DNA of 38,252 nucleotides from Escherichia phage E212, in sequence record MZ043897.1; one strand, written 5' to 3'. Of this stretch, positions 2,020-12,084 are shown one piece after another; position 1 is the stretch's first letter, and each line of letters opens with the position of its first letter. A model generated the notes under the pieces. That model ran no database searches. It worked only from the letters and a program-made list of their open reading frames with translations, and was not told the origin of the DNA. The position numbers and the translations under genes are program-made.

Positions 2020-2236
2020 AAAGAAGATTTCCAATAATCAGAACAAGTCGGCTCCTGTTTAGTTACGAGCGACATTGCTCCGTGTATTCACTCGTTGGAA
2101 TGAATACACAGTGCAGTGTTTATTCTGTTGTTTATGCCAAAGATAAAGGCCACTATCAGGCAGCTTTGTTGTTCTGTTTACCAAGTTCTCTGGCAATCAT
2201 TGCCGCCGCTTGAATTGTCCACACCATTGATTTTTA

Positions 2237-2323
2237 TCAATAGTCGTAGTCATACGGATAGTCCTGGTATTGTTCCATCACATCCTGAGGATGCTCTTCG
2301 AACTCTTCAAATTCTTCTTCCAT
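2237..2323 (-). CDS. Highly acidic 28-aa peptide
   Basis: ORF MEEEFEEFEEHPQDVMEQYQDYPYDYDY with a strong RBS (GAGGTGA, 4-nt spacer), directly downstream of the N-like gene; below the ORF-track cutoff. Confidence 0.3.
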   Translation of the reverse strand: MEEEFEEFEEHPQDVMEQYQDYPYDYDY

Positions 2324-2679: not shown

Positions 2680-2727
2680 GATGCAATCTCGAAGCTCCTC
2701 CTGAGACGGTTGCTTCGGCATTGCATC
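2680..2727 (-). promoter_or_regulatory. Large imperfect inverted repeat in the N leader (candidate RNase III-type processing hairpin)
   Basis: GATGCAATCTCGAAGC ... GCTTCGGCATTGCATC, about 15-bp arms around a 16-nt loop, between the nutL-like site and the N RBS. Confidence 0.4.
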
Positions 2728-2752
2728 CCACAGCTTATATGGTTGGGTGATC

Positions 2753-2799
2753 TGGCTTTTCAGCCACGTAGTCGAGTGTTCGACGTTGTTTAAAGAGCC
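2753..2799 (-). promoter_or_regulatory. nutL candidate (boxA-like plus two hairpins, the second with a GAAAA-type loop)
   Basis: Transcript reads GGCUCUUUA-AACAAC-GUCGAACACUCGAC-UACG-UGGCUGAAAAGCCA; the same architecture recurs at the nutR candidate. Confidence 0.45.
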
Positions 2800-2844
2800 T
2801 GCCAGTCTGCTCCGTTTGGCTTACAGCGTCCTGCTGACGGTTAA

Positions 2845-2873
2845 ATAGTACGATATGTACTTTATTGGGTCAA
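2845..2873 (-). promoter_or_regulatory. pL candidate promoter
   Basis: Minus-strand TTGACC, 17-bp spacer, TACTAT, about 40 nt upstream of the boxA-like element; overlapped by a palindromic operator candidate. Confidence 0.4.
2847..2861. promoter_or_regulatory. oL operator candidate (AGTAC-N5-GTACT)
   Basis: AGTACGATATGTACT inverted repeat overlapping the pL -10 and spacer; related half-sites occur in the cI-cro intergenic region. Confidence 0.4.
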
Positions 2874-3060
2874 TACAATTTGTTCTAAAATGGGGTGATT
2901 TTTTATAACGCTTTGTATTTAATAGTGTTGTTTTTTAGCGTGGGTGTATCGCCTCGGCGATGTAAGGAGAGATCAGAATTGCGTGGTTTAGTGAGTTGTA
3001 TCTATTTATTTTTCAATAAATACATTTGGTTATGTGTCTTTAGGTGGGGGCGTGAGGCAA

Positions 3061-3086
3061 AGAAAACCCGGCTCGGTGGCCGGGTT
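3061..3086 (-). terminator. Intrinsic terminator candidate just downstream of the NYN-domain gene
   Basis: AACCCGGC/GCCGGGTT 8-bp stem with 6-nt loop; on the minus strand it is followed by UUUUCUUU. Confidence 0.45.
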
Positions 3087-3093
3087 GATGGGA

Positions 3094-3951
3094 TTATCGT
3101 TTATTTCTTTGATGTTTCTTTGCAGACTCAGCTTGAGTGTTTCCATACCTGCGTTTACCGCTATTGTTTTTTCCTCTAGGCTTGCCTTTTTTTCGATCTT
3201 CCCACCAGTCAGGTGCCGGGTCTGGCTCAACATGTAAAGCATCGGCAAGTCCTGATATCAAGCTGTATGACTGAACTCCATCAATGTGCTCTGACAGTGA
3301 TGGGGTAACATTCTGTCTTAGTGGATCAAGAATAAAATCAATACCTTTAATTCTGGCGTGTTTGGCGGCAGGCACAAAGTCTGAGTCCCCAGCAACAAGG
3401 ACAATTACATCAACAAGTTTTTCATAAGCTAAAGTCGTGATATCCATCCCTAGCTTGATATCAACTTGTTTTTGTTTGATGTCATAGTAAAAATCATCAT
3501 TTGTCAGTTCATCCCATTTTTTCGTTCCTTTCATCAGAGCATCAAGGGAGAATGTAGTTAGTTGCCATCGCTTATTATCAACAAGATTCCCTAATCTTAA
3601 GGCTGTTTTTCGAGTTTTTCTTAACTCTTCATGCAGCTCCGTTCTCAGAATATATGATTTTTCGAGTTTGAAATTCTTGCGACCAGGCGTCTTATTGCCA
3701 GGCTCAGGAAGTGGAAGGCGTGTTTGAATGTCGAGTGGTGGACAGTCATAGAAGTAAATTCTATAAAGCTCAAGCGGTTCCCTACGTTCTTGTGATTGAC
3801 GTTTTCCATTAAGATGGGAAAGAACCATTGACCATATTACTTTCATTATGCATTGCGCAGTCAGTTCATGCTCGGCGAAGTGTTTACGATGCGTAGCATG
3901 AACACGCTGCATGAAAAAACCCGCATCAATTAAAATTGCTGCTTTCTTCAT
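3094..3951 (-). CDS. NYN/LabA-like (PIN-like) domain protein with basic C-terminal tail; putative nuclease in the rexAB position
   Basis: 285-aa ORF; N-terminal AAILIDAGFF and downstream IVLVAGDSDFVPAAK motifs are typical of NYN/LabA-like domains; Lys/Arg-rich C-terminal 40 aa; immediately downstream of cI on the same strand. Confidence 0.6.
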   Translation of the reverse strand: MKKAAILIDAGFFMQRVHATHRKHFAEHELTAQCIMKVIWSMVLSHLNGKRQSQERREPLELYRIYFYDCPPLDIQTRLPLPEPGNKTPGRKNFKLEKSYILRTELHEELRKTRKTALRLGNLVDNKRWQLTTFSLDALMKGTKKWDELTNDDFYYDIKQKQVDIKLGMDITTLAYEKLVDVIVLVAGDSDFVPAAKHARIKGIDFILDPLRQNVTPSLSEHIDGVQSYSLISGLADALHVEPDPAPDWWEDRKKGKPRGKNNSGKRRYGNTQAESAKKHQRNKR

Positions 3952-3960
3952 AAGAGTCCC

Positions 3961-4022
3961 AAAAAAATAGCCCAGAGCCGTTATGCAGATATTAACAATT
4001 GTCTGCGAACGGGGCTGGGCTT
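3961..4022 (-). terminator. Long structured hairpin with U-tract between cI and the NYN gene (terminator or attenuator candidate)
   Basis: Minus-strand arms AGCCCAGCCCCGUU / AACGGCUCUGGGCU (12 pairs with a 2-nt internal loop) enclosing an inner hairpin GCAGA...UCUGC, followed by AUUUUUUU; sits 60 nt after the cI stop, and its U-tract ends 10 nt before the NYN start codon. Confidence 0.5.
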
Positions 4023-4078
4023 GGTTTAATTAATCTATGCCAAGTTGACTGTGCCGTCAACATAAAACTTACTTCCTA

Positions 4079-4738
4079 TCACCCAAACGTCTCTTCAGGC
4101 CACTGACTAGCGATAACTTTCCCCACAACGGAACAACTCTCATTGCATGGGATCATTGGGTATTGTGGGTTTAGTGGCTGTAGAAACACCTGACCGCTAT
4201 CCCTGATCAGTTTCTTGAAGGTAAACTCATCACCACCAAGTCTGGCTATACAGAAATCGCCTGGCTCAACAGCCTGCTCAGGGTCAACCAGAATTAACAT
4301 CCCGTCAGGAAAGCTGGGCTTGGATCCTGTTGGTGCGGTCATGGAATTACCTTCAACCTCAAGCCAGAATGCAGAGCCACTGGCTTTTTTGGTTGTGCTT
4401 ACCAATCTCTCCGCATCGCCTTTGGTAAAGGTTCTGAGTTCTGGAGAGAACATCCCAGCCTGAACATGAGAAAATACAGGGTACTCATATTGTTTTTTAA
4501 CTGGGGCCGATGAGTATTCGCCAACAGGTGAAAATGTCCCGTCGTGGTTGAATGATATGTTATCAATACCAAGGTATTTAAACACCACACCAATATCACT
4601 AAGAGATGGATGACGAGATCCGCGCAACCAGTGTCCAATCCCACCCTGCGTCATACCTAGCTCTTCGGCTAACTTCTCTTGAGTTATGCCGAGCTCTTTC
4701 ATTCTGGATCTAGCCAGTTCATACCATTTCATTTTCAT
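4079..4738 (-). CDS. cI: CI repressor, hybrid: novel N-terminal HTH domain fused to a lambda-cI-type C-terminal S24 (LexA-like) domain
   Basis: C-terminal about 135 aa ([13 protein letters not shown]...[12 protein letters not shown]) near-identical to lambda cI; N-terminal about 85 aa ([37 protein letters not shown]...) unrelated to lambda cI; start taken at the internal Met with RBS AAGGA. Confidence 0.9.
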
Positions 4739-4773
4739 GTCCTTATTATTACGCTCTGTACTGGAACCATCCA

Positions 4774-4820
4774 TGCACAATGTGTATTTTTGCTTGTATT
4801 TGGAAAGTACATATTGTATT
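4774..4820. promoter_or_regulatory. oR operator candidates in the cI-cro divergent region
   Basis: TGCACAATGTGTATT (4774-4788) and AGTACATATTGTATT (4806-4820) resemble the oL palindrome AGTACGATATGTACT; exact pR/pRM hexamers not resolved. Confidence 0.35.
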
Positions 4821-4848
4821 TTTTATTCGAGGTTACTATGGAGGGCAT

Positions 4849-5064
4849 ATGAGCAACCTACGAAAATATCGAGAGTCACTGAATATCTCTCAAACAACAC
4901 TTGCTAAGGCAGTTGGATGCACACAGGGAGCTATCGGACATTGGGAATCTGGTCGTCGCTTCCCAGACCTTAAAACATGCCGTGCTCTTGTTGCGTGCCT
5001 AAATAAGTTAGGCGCAAAAGTAAGTCTTGATGACGTGTTCCCGCCGGAACACAAAGCCGCTTAA
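4849..5064 (+). CDS. cro: Cro-like HTH repressor
   Basis: 71-aa ORF divergent from cI; HTH segment ISQTTLAKAVGCTQGAIGHWESG shares its type with the cI N-terminus; RBS GGAGGG. Confidence 0.8.
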   Translation: MSNLRKYRESLNISQTTLAKAVGCTQGAIGHWESGRRFPDLKTCRALVACLNKLGAKVSLDDVFPPEHKAA

Positions 5065-5074
5065 TAAGCGGAGC

Positions 5075-5120
5075 CGCTCTTTGTAACAACGGACATTCGT
5101 CCTACGTCGCTGAAAAGCGA
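5075..5120 (+). promoter_or_regulatory. nutR candidate (boxA-like CGCTCTTTG plus two hairpins, the second with a GAAAA-type loop)
   Basis: CGCUCUUUG-UAACAAC-GGACAUUCGUCC-UACG-UCGCUGAAAAGCGA; parallels the nutL candidate element for element. Confidence 0.45.
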
Positions 5121-5205
5121 GTCCCAAGATATCTGACCAACTAAGGCCATATGCGTTTCCACGCATACCTTTCAACTAACTATTCACTATTGGAAATCTT
5201 AAGAA

Positions 5206-5502
5206 ATGGAACGAACAAGTTACAGCAAACTATCACAGCGTGACGTTGATCGCGCAGAAACAGATTTACTCATCAACCTATCAACGCTTACCCAGCGCGG
5301 TCTGGCAAAGATGATTGGCTGTCATGAATCGAAGATAAGCAGAACGGACTGGAGATTTATTGCTTCGGTCTTGTGTGCTTTCGGAATGGCATCAGACATC
5401 AGTCCGATTAGCAGGGCTTTTAAGTATGCGCTTGATGAAATCACAAAGAAAAAATCCCCGGCCGCCACCGAGGATTTTAAGCAAATTGATATGCAATTCT
5501 GA
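5206..5502 (+). CDS. cII: CII-like transcriptional activator
   Basis: 98-aa ORF; C-terminus KKKSPAATEDFKQIDMQF resembles lambda CII KKRPAATERSEQIQMEF; HTH in the middle. Confidence 0.8.
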   Translation: MERTSYSKLSQRDVDRAETDLLINLSTLTQRGLAKMIGCHESKISRTDWRFIASVLCAFGMASDISPISRAFKYALDEITKKKSPAATEDFKQIDMQF

Positions 5503-10752: not shown

Positions 10753-11372
10753 GACTCGAAAGCGTAGCTAAATTTCATTCTCCAAAAAGCCCGATGATGA
10801 GCGACTCACCACGGGCTACAGCTTCTGACTCTCTTTCCGGTACTGATGTGATGGCTGCTATGGGGATGGCGCAATCACAAGCCGGATTCGGTATGGCTGC
10901 ATTCTGCGGTAAGCATGAACTCAGCCAGAACGACAAACAAAAGGCTATCAACTATCTGATGCAATTTGCACACAAGGTATCGGGGAAATACCGTGGTGTG
11001 GCAAAGCTTGAAGGAAATACTAAGGCAAAGGTACTGCAAGTGCTCGCAACATTCGCTTATGCGGATTATTGCCGTAGTGCCGCGACGCCGGGCGCAAGAT
11101 GCAGAGATTGCCACGGTACAGGCCGTGCGGTTGATATATCAAAAACAGAGCTGTGGGGGAGAGTTGTTGAGAAAGAATGCGGAAGATGCAAAGGTGTCGG
11201 CTATTCAAGAATGCCAGCAAGCGCCGCATATCGCGCTGTAACGATGCTAATCCCAAATCTTACCCAACCAACCTGGTCACGCACTGTTAAGCCGCTGTAT
11301 GACGCTCTGGTGGTGCAATGCCACAAAGAAGAGTCAATCGCAGACAACATTTTGAATGCGGTCACACGTTAA
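10749..11372 (+). CDS. Q: Late gene antiterminator Q (lambda-type)
   Basis: 207-aa ORF essentially identical to lambda Q (MRLESVAKFHSPKSPMMSDSPRATASDSLSGTD...). Confidence 0.95.
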   Translation: MRLESVAKFHSPKSPMMSDSPRATASDSLSGTDVMAAMGMAQSQAGFGMAAFCGKHELSQNDKQKAINYLMQFAHKVSGKYRGVAKLEGNTKAKVLQVLATFAYADYCRSAATPGARCRDCHGTGRAVDISKTELWGRVVEKECGRCKGVGYSRMPASAAYRAVTMLIPNLTQPTWSRTVKPLYDALVVQCHKEESIADNILNAVTR

Positions 11373-11414
11373 CAGCATGATTGCCACGGATGGCAACATA
11401 TTAACGGCATAATA

Positions 11415-11443
11415 TTGACTTTTTGAATAAAGTTGGGTAAATT
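11415..11443 (+). promoter_or_regulatory. Late promoter pR' with overlapping qut site
   Basis: TTGACT, 17-bp spacer, TAAATT immediately downstream of Q, as in lambda. Confidence 0.8.
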
Positions 11444-11449
11444 TGACTC

Positions 11450-11642
11450 AACGATGGGTTAATTCGCTCGTTGTGGTAGTGAGATGAAAAGAGGCGGCGC
11501 TTACTACCGATTCCGCCTAGTTGGTCACTTCGACGTATCGTCTGGAACTCCAACCATCGCAGGCAGAGAGGTCTGCAAAATGCAATCCCGAAACAGTTCG
11601 CAGGTAATAGTTAGAGCCTGCATAACGGTTTCGGGATTTTTT
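11450..11642 (+). ncRNA. Short pR'-initiated leader transcript (lambda 6S RNA equivalent) ending at tR'
   Basis: About 190 nt between the pR' start and the tR' hairpin, no ORF, arrangement as in lambda. Confidence 0.55.
11587..11642 (+). terminator. tR' intrinsic terminator
   Basis: CCCGAAAC ... GTTTCGGG long hairpin followed by ATTTTTTAT. Confidence 0.8.
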
Positions 11643-12084
11643 ATATCTGCACAACAGGTAAGAGCATTGAACCCGCAGACCTCGCGGAATTGGTGAAAGG
11701 TGCCGCGCAGTGCTCTTATCGTTGTGGTGAATGCACAGGCTGATGTGTAAGGGCAAGAATCTTTCGCTGGATTCGGTGTGGCCACGTAGCCCGCTGTAGG
11801 CAGTTGCAGCAAACCGGAGATCAGCACCGGTCGCCACAATCCAAACTGAGCCGTAGCCACTGGCTATCCTGAATTCATCAGTGATAGTTACGCTGCGGCC
11901 TTCTACACATGATCTTCGTGAAAGCGGGCGGCATGAGGTTGCGCTAACAACCTCATGCCGTTTTGCCCGTGCATATCGGTCACGAACAAATCTGATTACT
12001 AAACACAGTAGCCTGGATTTGTTCTATCAGTAATCGACCTTATTCCTAATTAAATAGAGCAAATCCCCTTATTGGGGGTAAGAC

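Follow-up and report, generated by a model that had tools for sequence, protein, structure and literature searches.

How is a nuclease gene expressed when a hairpin and a U-tract stand directly ahead of its start codon? The question is raised by Escherichia phage E212 (sequence record MZ043897.1), a lambda-like phage analysed here over a stretch of 38,252 nucleotides (the window). Every feature described for the locus, from cI to N, lies on the minus strand, where the order is cro/PRM, cI, a 127-nt spacer, the gene for a NYN-domain nuclease (NYN), a further spacer, a PL-like promoter and N. An earlier note on this DNA had described hairpins with U-tracts on both sides of the NYN gene and had suggested that, if the upstream one terminates, the gene is not simply co-transcribed with cI as rexAB is in lambda. 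Our comparison of the locus with its relatives indicates that the leader ahead of the gene is a conserved RNA that partners with a large family of nucleases and has so far gone unannotated; unexpectedly, it is also a relative of the lambda terminator tR'.

Structure, predicted promoter and conservation of the NYN leader

The upstream hairpin was located at 4021-3969, between cI and the NYN gene (285 aa, 3951-3094, with its ATG at 3951 and its TAA at 3096-3094). It is built in three tiers, with an outer stem of 7 bp (AGCCCAG/CUGGGCU) followed by a 2x2 internal loop, a middle stem of 5 bp (CCGUU/AACGG) followed by a 1x2 loop and an inner stem of 5 bp (GCAGA/UCUGC) capped by a 12-nt apical loop. 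The U-tract AUUUUUUU follows directly 3' of the hairpin at 3968-3961 and a weak Shine-Dalgarno (SD) sequence, GGGA, stands right after it (3960-3957); enterobacterial relatives have a UGGA or GGGA motif at the matching place. The layout described in the earlier note, with a hairpin and U-tract on each side of the gene, was recovered at the places it had given (here delimited as 4021-3961 and 3086-3057), and only its spacings needed adjustment: the hairpin begins about 57 nt rather than 60 nt after the cI stop (TGA at 4081-4079), and the U-tract ends 9 nt (GGGACUCUU) rather than 10 nt before the NYN ATG. Folding of the 65-nt leader RNA gave a dG of -25.0 kcal/mol (z = -5.7), and none of 200 shuffles was equally stable. 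The two hairpins were likewise supported by folding of 3952-4030 (-25.9 kcal/mol, z = -4.1) and of the downstream hairpin (-14.5 kcal/mol, z = -3.3).

The downstream element (3086-3057) is an ordinary intrinsic terminator that closes the cassette. Its hairpin of 8 bp with a GC stem, AACCCGGC/GCCGGGUU at 3086-3065, starts 8 nt past the NYN TAA, is followed by UUUUCUUU and was also called by the terminator scan. Other enterobacterial cassettes have a terminator at the equivalent place, with sequences that are unrelated from case to case. Both the upstream and the downstream element have the stable GC-rich hairpin and immediate U-tract of an intrinsic terminator, and the upstream one is absent from the output of the scan because the loop limit of the scan was 8 nt and the hairpin has a loop of 12 nt.

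A consensus scan placed a predicted sigma70 promoter at 4060-4032, with a -35 element TTGACG (4060-4055), a 17-nt spacer and a -10 element TAGATT (4037-4032). The predicted +1 falls at about 4025, four nt ahead of the stem, so that the hairpin would be essentially the whole 5' leader of the NYN transcript. The predicted leader RNA of about 65 nt (4025-3961), supported by folding, covariation and the covariance model described below, would consist of a 4-nt 5' tail, the three-tier hairpin and the U-tract. The promoter overlapping the hairpin that the earlier note had considered is not needed, as the sigma70-like promoter lies upstream of the hairpin and its position is conserved in relatives. 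In the 50 nt ahead of the stem, 20 of 31 distinct NYN loci had a promoter-like match of 9/12 or better as compared to 4.5% of shuffles, TTGAC was seen in 68% of these loci as compared to 5% of shuffles, and the end of the -10 hexamer lies 8-16 nt ahead of the stem in the relatives. At several NYN loci the upstream neighbour (a holin, a BamD-like gene, an FRG protein or DUF6124) is encoded on the opposite strand; an own promoter is therefore needed there and the hairpin cannot be the terminator of another gene.

A perfect inverted repeat, TTGAC-N6-GTCAA (4060-4045), overlaps the -35 element and may be an operator of the cassette promoter. The identical repeat was observed in Tatumella, Yersinia, one Lysobacteraceae and two Pseudomonas-type loci (L006, L007, L019, L105 and L107 among the loci compared, which are numbered L throughout).

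Two ways in which the leader might act through other pairings were considered and rejected. A competing fold of the riboswitch or attenuator type was not found, as longer transcripts kept the identical hairpin in both minimum free energy and centroid folds, and such a fold is unlikely because the leader consists of a 4-nt tail and the hairpin alone. Pairing of the 5' tail (CCA) with the SD (UGG) after read-through gave a mean duplex energy of -2.0 kcal/mol over 20 distinct leaders as compared to -2.2 kcal/mol for shuffled tails. A search of Rfam 15 with window 2700-5300 and 11350-11750 and with 12 distant loci returned no family matching the leader element, the abiF motif included.

Conservation of the leader was assessed in two sets of NYN homologues, one from contigs of one genome per species (36 loci, 86-30% identity) and one from IMG/VR (527 confirmed, 79 of them used as viral loci); a protein search matched the NYN family to 7035 clusters at E <= 0.001. 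An alignment of 16 enterobacterial, Pseudomonas and related leaders gave a 17-bp consensus with compensatory changes in 12 of the 17 pairs, and 95.6% of its cells were paired as compared to 27-44% when the 3' partners were slid. A covariance model (R1), built with lambda tR' left out, scored the NYN leader of the window at 82.8 bits and gave exactly one match per locus, directly upstream of the NYN start, in 71 of the 79 viral loci. In most viral loci the matches ended about 8-10 nt before the start and in others up to about 33 nt, and no further match at E <= 1e-4 was found across 431 kb. The 22 distinct sequences matched by the model had 97.6% of cells paired (25-44% with slid partners) and 12 compensatory pairs, and NYN lay downstream in all 9 of the metagenome matches to the hairpin core. 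The hairpin is far from a chance structure, since relatives conserve it with covariation. It also changes far less than its surroundings. In elements from Proteus, Tatumella, Yersinia, Photorhabdus and Xenorhabdus the 53-nt hairpin was 89-96% identical to that of the window, and in the same elements the third codon positions of NYN (at identical residues) were 37-49% identical and the 60 nt upstream 56-61% identical. A generic terminator would not be expected to hold its apical loop and internal loops constant in this way.

Comparable leaders of promoter, hairpin and U-tract precede NYN homologues as distant as 34% identity. Rhizobiaceae, Lysobacteraceae, Methylococcaceae, Moraxella, Pasteurellaceae, Marinomonas, Vibrio and Coriobacteriia have long irregular hairpins of their own at the same place, mostly with a U-tract, and the NYN copies of Rhodanobacter have a simple GC hairpin only. 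MAFFT/RNAalifold recovered the outer stems alone from these distant RNA classes, which share their architecture with the enterobacterial and Pseudomonas class; homology is not claimed. Several features of individual classes were observed. Some Coriobacteriia (L022, L024, L025 and L026) have a promoter farther upstream and an extra small hairpin about 40-55 nt before the main one, giving leaders that would be about 100 nt long with two hairpins; an apical loop GAUAAG, carried on a CCGC/GCGG stem, hardly varies among them. In three distant leaders (L030, L019 and L040) AGUA or UGUAC faces GAA across the internal loop beside the outer stem, which recalls the loop-E or sarcin-ricin motif, with flanking pairs that fit poorly. 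The Pseudomonas cassette L010 has a C4 antisense RNA and its a1/b1 target just upstream (2057-2246, minus strand; 80.5 and 38.3 bits in Rfam), a P1/P7-type immunity system, so this NYN copy adjoins another phage immunity system.

Kinship with the lambda terminator tR'

The covariance model detected one more hairpin of this family elsewhere in the window, at 11580-11646 on the plus strand, downstream of Q (60.3 bits, E 1.4e-13). This member is the lambda tR' terminator, the 3' end of 6S RNA: window 11570-11650 is 100% identical to lambda J02459 44707-44787. The copy sits between Q and S and folds at -26.9 kcal/mol (z = -6.0); the annotation of phage O276 lists it as a terminator. The tR' and NYN leader hairpins share the three-tier form, a core of GUUCGCAG..AAU.GUUA....CUGCAUAACGG and the U-tract after it, and they are 68% identical over 53 nt. 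Both would be promoter-proximal gates before downstream genes and both would give a short terminated RNA. They differ in that tR' ends a 194-nt leader starting from PR' whereas the NYN leader begins about 4 nt before the hairpin, and in that tR' has a continuous 11-bp stem where the NYN leader has the 2x2 internal loop. Q-modified polymerase reads through tR', whereas no antiterminator is known for the NYN leader, and the genes downstream of tR' are those for lysis and morphogenesis and not NYN.

A generalised core pattern gave at least 117 matches in IMG/VR. Among the core matches listed there were just two contexts, directly upstream of NYN (at least 43) and downstream of a lambda-type Q (at least 66), and some of the other 8 listed matches look like tR' copies in truncated contexts. 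In an Enterobacter-like lambdoid phage (L156) an exact NYN-type variant serves as tR'. The arrangement there (3560-3699) is a Q-like gene, a leader like that of lambda 6S, the NYN-type hairpin in the tR' position and a tRNA-Arg(TCT) 2 nt later.

In sequence and structure the NYN leader hairpin is a homologue of lambda tR', which lends indirect experimental support to its termination. The NYN leader is very likely a working intrinsic terminator, and the product of its homologue has been seen in vivo, as the 194-nt tR'-terminated 6S RNA of lambda (bioRxiv 10.1101/2024.10.31.621285; PMC7547250). The expectation of the earlier note that NYN, if the upstream element terminates, is not simply co-transcribed with cI as rexAB is, is thereby supported. 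A full-text literature search with the hairpin sequence returned no paper, and literature on NYN combined with prophage or defence terms contained nothing relevant; to our knowledge the link between tR' and the NYN leader has not been described before.

Lambda 6S RNA is present in both lysogenic and lytic cells and is bound by Hfq (bioRxiv 10.1101/2024.10.31.621285). As this RNA ends in a hairpin homologous to that of the NYN leader, the leader could instead be a trans-acting, Hfq-dependent base-pairing small RNA, like StxS or PreS, with host or phage mRNAs as targets and only an incidental linkage to NYN. The long U-tail behind a terminator hairpin is typical of an Hfq module and the loop sequence is conserved, both of which agree with this explanation. 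However, the hairpin is strictly linked to NYN, the single-stranded 5' end is just 4 nt long and the RNA classes switch along with the NYN clades in unrelated hosts. In addition, the complement of the apical loop had 3 matches at <=2 mismatches as phage-internal targets in the window, which is within chance. We regard a base-pairing RNA of this kind as very unlikely.

A mobile cassette and RNA-only copies

The NYN cassette was found to move as a unit. Stx2a-converting phages that carry a different repressor share window 4097-3013 at 99.4% identity and have only this segment in common with window region 2800-4800. Their order is cI, DUF3024, an 18-nt relic of the 3' end of the window-type cI and then the cassette; the last 18 nt of cI move along with it. 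In one of them, EH0505, the DUF3024 gene (L256 5248-5589, minus strand) lies between cI and the cassette. A further copy of the hairpin in this record (L256 1556-1622) precedes a second N gene by about 700 nt; the interval contains no open reading frame (ORF) of at least 90 aa and hence no intact NYN.

The cassette of four parts (promoter, leader, NYN gene and terminator) was also found in Proteus phage Brookers (L088), where it follows an S24 repressor, in the L094 type, where Q and the terminator of Q precede it and a separate PR'/tR'-like region comes after it, and in the L075/76 type, where it lies antisense between a lambda-type Q and a holin. Further copies adjoin integrases or chromosomal genes. 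The possibility that the promoter and hairpin of the L094 type are themselves PR' and tR' was rejected, as Q has its own terminator there and the separate PR'/tR'-like region follows the cassette. By these comparisons the NYN unit occupies four different slots and is built as a moron, with a predicted promoter and a predicted terminator. Lambda carries rexAB instead of the cassette in the slot between cI and N.

The movement of the hairpin together with NYN bears on the plainest explanation of the locus, that two ordinary terminators flank a moron by chance and that the upstream one is the terminator of cI. Morons often carry terminators, and the downstream hairpin is such a terminator. A promoter-like site nevertheless lies between the cI stop and the upstream hairpin, the hairpin accompanies NYN into slots that have no cI, and it is far more conserved than its flanks. 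Chance flanking by ordinary terminators is therefore highly improbable.

The whole cassette is present in 74 of 5426 complete E. coli genomes. About 210 more E. coli genomes, mostly O157:H7, contain the Sp1/CP-933H remnant (L005 3501-3967 in EDL933), a decayed prophage in which the promoter and the hairpin survive together with the 5' half of NYN. The remnant encodes a truncated NYN of 129 aa, is retained at about 100% identity in these genomes, and is a convenient site at which to seek the leader RNA in published RNA-seq of enterohaemorrhagic E. coli (EHEC). The EcOnc table of Tree et al. 2014 has no entry in Sp1. The known EHEC small RNAs AgvB and AsxR were considered as the leader RNA and rejected, as they lie at PR' moron sites and are unrelated.

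Around the cassette in the window, the cI-type repressor gene (4738-4079) was identified as an ORF with Pfam matches to HTH_3 and Peptidase_S24, and its start at 4738 was read from an AAGGA SD followed by ATG. At the left edge of the slot a promoter scan placed the PL-like promoter, TTGACC-17-TACTAT (2873-2845), upstream of the N gene (2726-2382), which has an N_peptide match in Pfam.

The hairpin also occurs as RNA alone. Two virulent phages of the Carltongylesvirus (Chaseviridae), BSBP01 and 2KOFFS, have a 62-nt element of 98% identity without a NYN gene, and the segment they share runs from ACCAAG (window 4025, the predicted +1) through the U-tract. Their relatives GJ1, SA91KD and EcoM1 have a tRNA-like gene of 92-95 nt at the exact spot of the 62-nt element. 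The hairpin (L002 3001-3062; L004 3-63) replaces this gene (compare L163 1026-1120 and L162 1195-1286), which is annotated as tRNA-Arg with an intron and called Ser or Leu by ARAGORN. The unverified faecal phage scaffold MT838212 (6.3 kb) has a Pseudomonas-type hairpin with a U-tract (L259 80-148, minus strand) that is 97% identical to that of L011; the gene after it is unlike NYN over the 26 codons to the contig end, and no NYN was found in the 6.3 kb.

Proposed gating and restraint of the nuclease

The NYN protein matched Pfam PF01936 at 36.8 bits (cut-off 24.2) and PHROG 5783, an entry without a function; its NCBIfam match stayed under the cut-off. The C-terminal tail is basic. Six acidic residues are invariant in the homologues (D9, D69, D164, D170, D189 and D191), as expected for a NYN/PIN-like active site. 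A confident AF2 model of the protein (pLDDT 87) had the NYN domain of Marf1 as its closest PDB structure (E 1.4e-3, TM 0.68 on the target), and a sequence-profile search of the PDB found no solved relative. PADLOC returned only weak matches to HEC-09 (2e-4) and NYN (1.4e-3).

As NYN domains are RNases, with Marf1 the closest structure here, the hairpin could be the substrate of NYN. Cleavage of its own leader would give negative feedback, as in the comparable case of Regnase-1, and cleavage of the tR' late leader of superinfecting lambda-like phages would give exclusion. The presence of the hairpin family in the late-operon leader of lambda-type phages fits such a role, as does the slot between cI and PL, the classical place of exclusion genes such as rexAB and nun. 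But the window phage itself has a tR' copy, the tR' of L156 is the exact NYN-type variant and the hairpin has been taken up by two virulent phages, all of which would be self-harming if the hairpin were the target, and the hairpins of the distant NYN classes have no known phage counterpart. The substrate explanation is disfavoured because phages, the window phage included, carry or acquire the hairpin, and we consider it unlikely.

We favour the reading that the NYN unit is a terminator-gated nuclease module whose leader RNA also restrains NYN, and would give it a probability of roughly 45%. Structure, covariation, sequence conservation, fixed position, the conserved promoter-like site, the mobility of the cassette and the homology to tR' are shown by the analysis. 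We infer actual termination, the transcription start site, binding of the RNA to the protein, the toxicity of NYN and a role in defence. The unit would be a mobile moron of four parts, a sigma70 promoter, a leader of about 65 nt made of the hairpin and U-tract, the gene of an RNase and an ordinary terminator. The leader hairpin would be an efficient terminator of the tR' family that stops both the cI-derived transcripts (from PRM or PRE) and those from the cassette promoter, with most transcripts ending at 3961-3966. As both kinds of transcript meet the same terminator, NYN would be made by read-through alone; the short leader RNA would accumulate in excess and NYN mRNA would arise only by rare read-through. 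The leader RNA would in addition be a specific ligand of NYN that restrains it in cis, by attenuation, and in trans, in the manner of an antitoxin. We infer a ligand here because the hairpin and its 12-nt loop are nearly constant amid drift and because leaders are kept across distant bacteria.

The proposed module resembles several known systems. In AbiF/RCd22 (with the abiF-motif RNA) of a Clostridioides difficile prophage, a SigA promoter is followed by an RNA with conserved hairpins, a terminator, a ribosome binding site and the toxin gene; the short RNA dominates, read-through yields the toxin, removal of the RNA raises abiF toxin mRNA 17-fold, and experiments showed that the RNA binds and neutralises AbiF in cis and trans (PMC12373285). 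The NYN unit is likewise borne by a prophage and has, as predicted here, a housekeeping-sigma promoter, a structured RNA, a Rho-independent terminator, a ribosome binding site and an RNA-targeting protein, and in both cases the RNA motif is kept upstream of the protein family in many bacteria. The two differ in that the AbiF toxin belongs to the Abi_2/AbiD-F family and not to NYN, and in that RCd22 has two abiF hairpins and a separate terminator whereas the NYN leader is a single hairpin that is itself the terminator.

The type III toxin-antitoxin (TA) systems ToxIN, CptIN and TenpIN also have an RNA upstream of an endoribonuclease gene, one promoter and a terminator in between, an order predicted here for NYN. 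The terminator of type III TA systems sets the ratio of RNA to toxin and the systems are often phage-defence modules; Blower et al. in 2012 reportedly found that phages can escape them by acquiring the RNA. A search of window 2900-4200 for ToxI-like tandem repeats found none, the leader being a single hairpin, and the protein belongs to none of the ToxN/AbiQ, CptN or TenpN toxin families, Pfam giving NYN alone. Because it has neither repeated RNA units nor a ToxN-type toxin, the NYN module is not a member of the type III TA systems and is merely built alike.

By its slot between the repressor and PL/N the cassette resembles lambda rexAB, HK022 nun and BTP1 bstA, and like these genes, and like morons in general, it is an accessory gene that has a terminator of its own and is exchanged among backbones. 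Lambda rexAB is co-transcribed with cI from PRM, whereas a terminator and a separate promoter lie between cI and NYN. Unlike the exclusion genes of the cI-PL slot, the NYN cassette is also found in Q-proximal and integrase-proximal slots.

Several points weigh against a leader RNA that both gates and restrains NYN. The covariance model scored the distant leader classes only weakly and their homology to the enterobacterial and Pseudomonas class is not demonstrated. Marinomonas, some Coriobacteriia and Rhodanobacter leaders have a weak U-tract or none, so termination would not be universal. The high identity of the hairpin could partly reflect recent horizontal spread of a mobile 62-nt unit, as seen in L156 and the Chaseviridae, and RNA-only copies are few. 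Any simple story of an inhibitor or of a target is complicated by the window phage, which has a tR' copy in addition to NYN, and PADLOC gave no confident match at NYN, leaving a defence role unproven. Finally, an explanation that acts in cis only accounts for most of the data equally well.

In that explanation the promoter-proximal terminator sets a very low constitutive level of NYN and insulates the gene from cI, and the RNA is a by-product. The layout of promoter, hairpin with U-tract, SD and gene is what it calls for, the hairpin is homologous to a genuine terminator, the terminator of RCd22 alone cuts abiF expression 17-fold, and the trans role of the leader RNA is putative. However, a generic terminator needs just a GC stem and a U-tract, and this hairpin has kept its 12-nt loop and its internal loops although synonymous sites are saturated. 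Lineages with poor U-tracts retain the hairpin, and virulent phages captured the RNA alone, exactly from the predicted +1 to the U-tract. Attenuation in cis with no role for the RNA is possible, if on the unlikely side.

A more far-reaching extension of the gated and restrained nuclease module is that the leader RNA is an antitoxin or inhibitor of NYN and that the stand-alone copies, in the tR' of lambda 6S, in the tR' of L156 and in the Carltongylesvirus, are anti-defence decoys. We hold this to be unlikely. If true, it would define a new family of RNA-regulated nuclease defence with thousands of members and would provide a function for lambda 6S RNA, an abundant RNA to which none has been assigned for about 50 years. 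The NYN family is large (the 7035 clusters above) and frequent in prophages, and no role has been assigned to it. If its leader RNA gates and restrains the nuclease, the NYN unit would be an undescribed module of RNA and nuclease, with an architecture as in the type III TA systems and AbiF/RCd22, and such a module would occupy the classical exclusion slot beside cI. The leader RNA is new to Rfam. Its kinship with tR' connects an accessory nuclease system with a textbook terminator and with lambda 6S RNA, and its exact capture by virulent phages suggests a form of counter-defence that can be tested.

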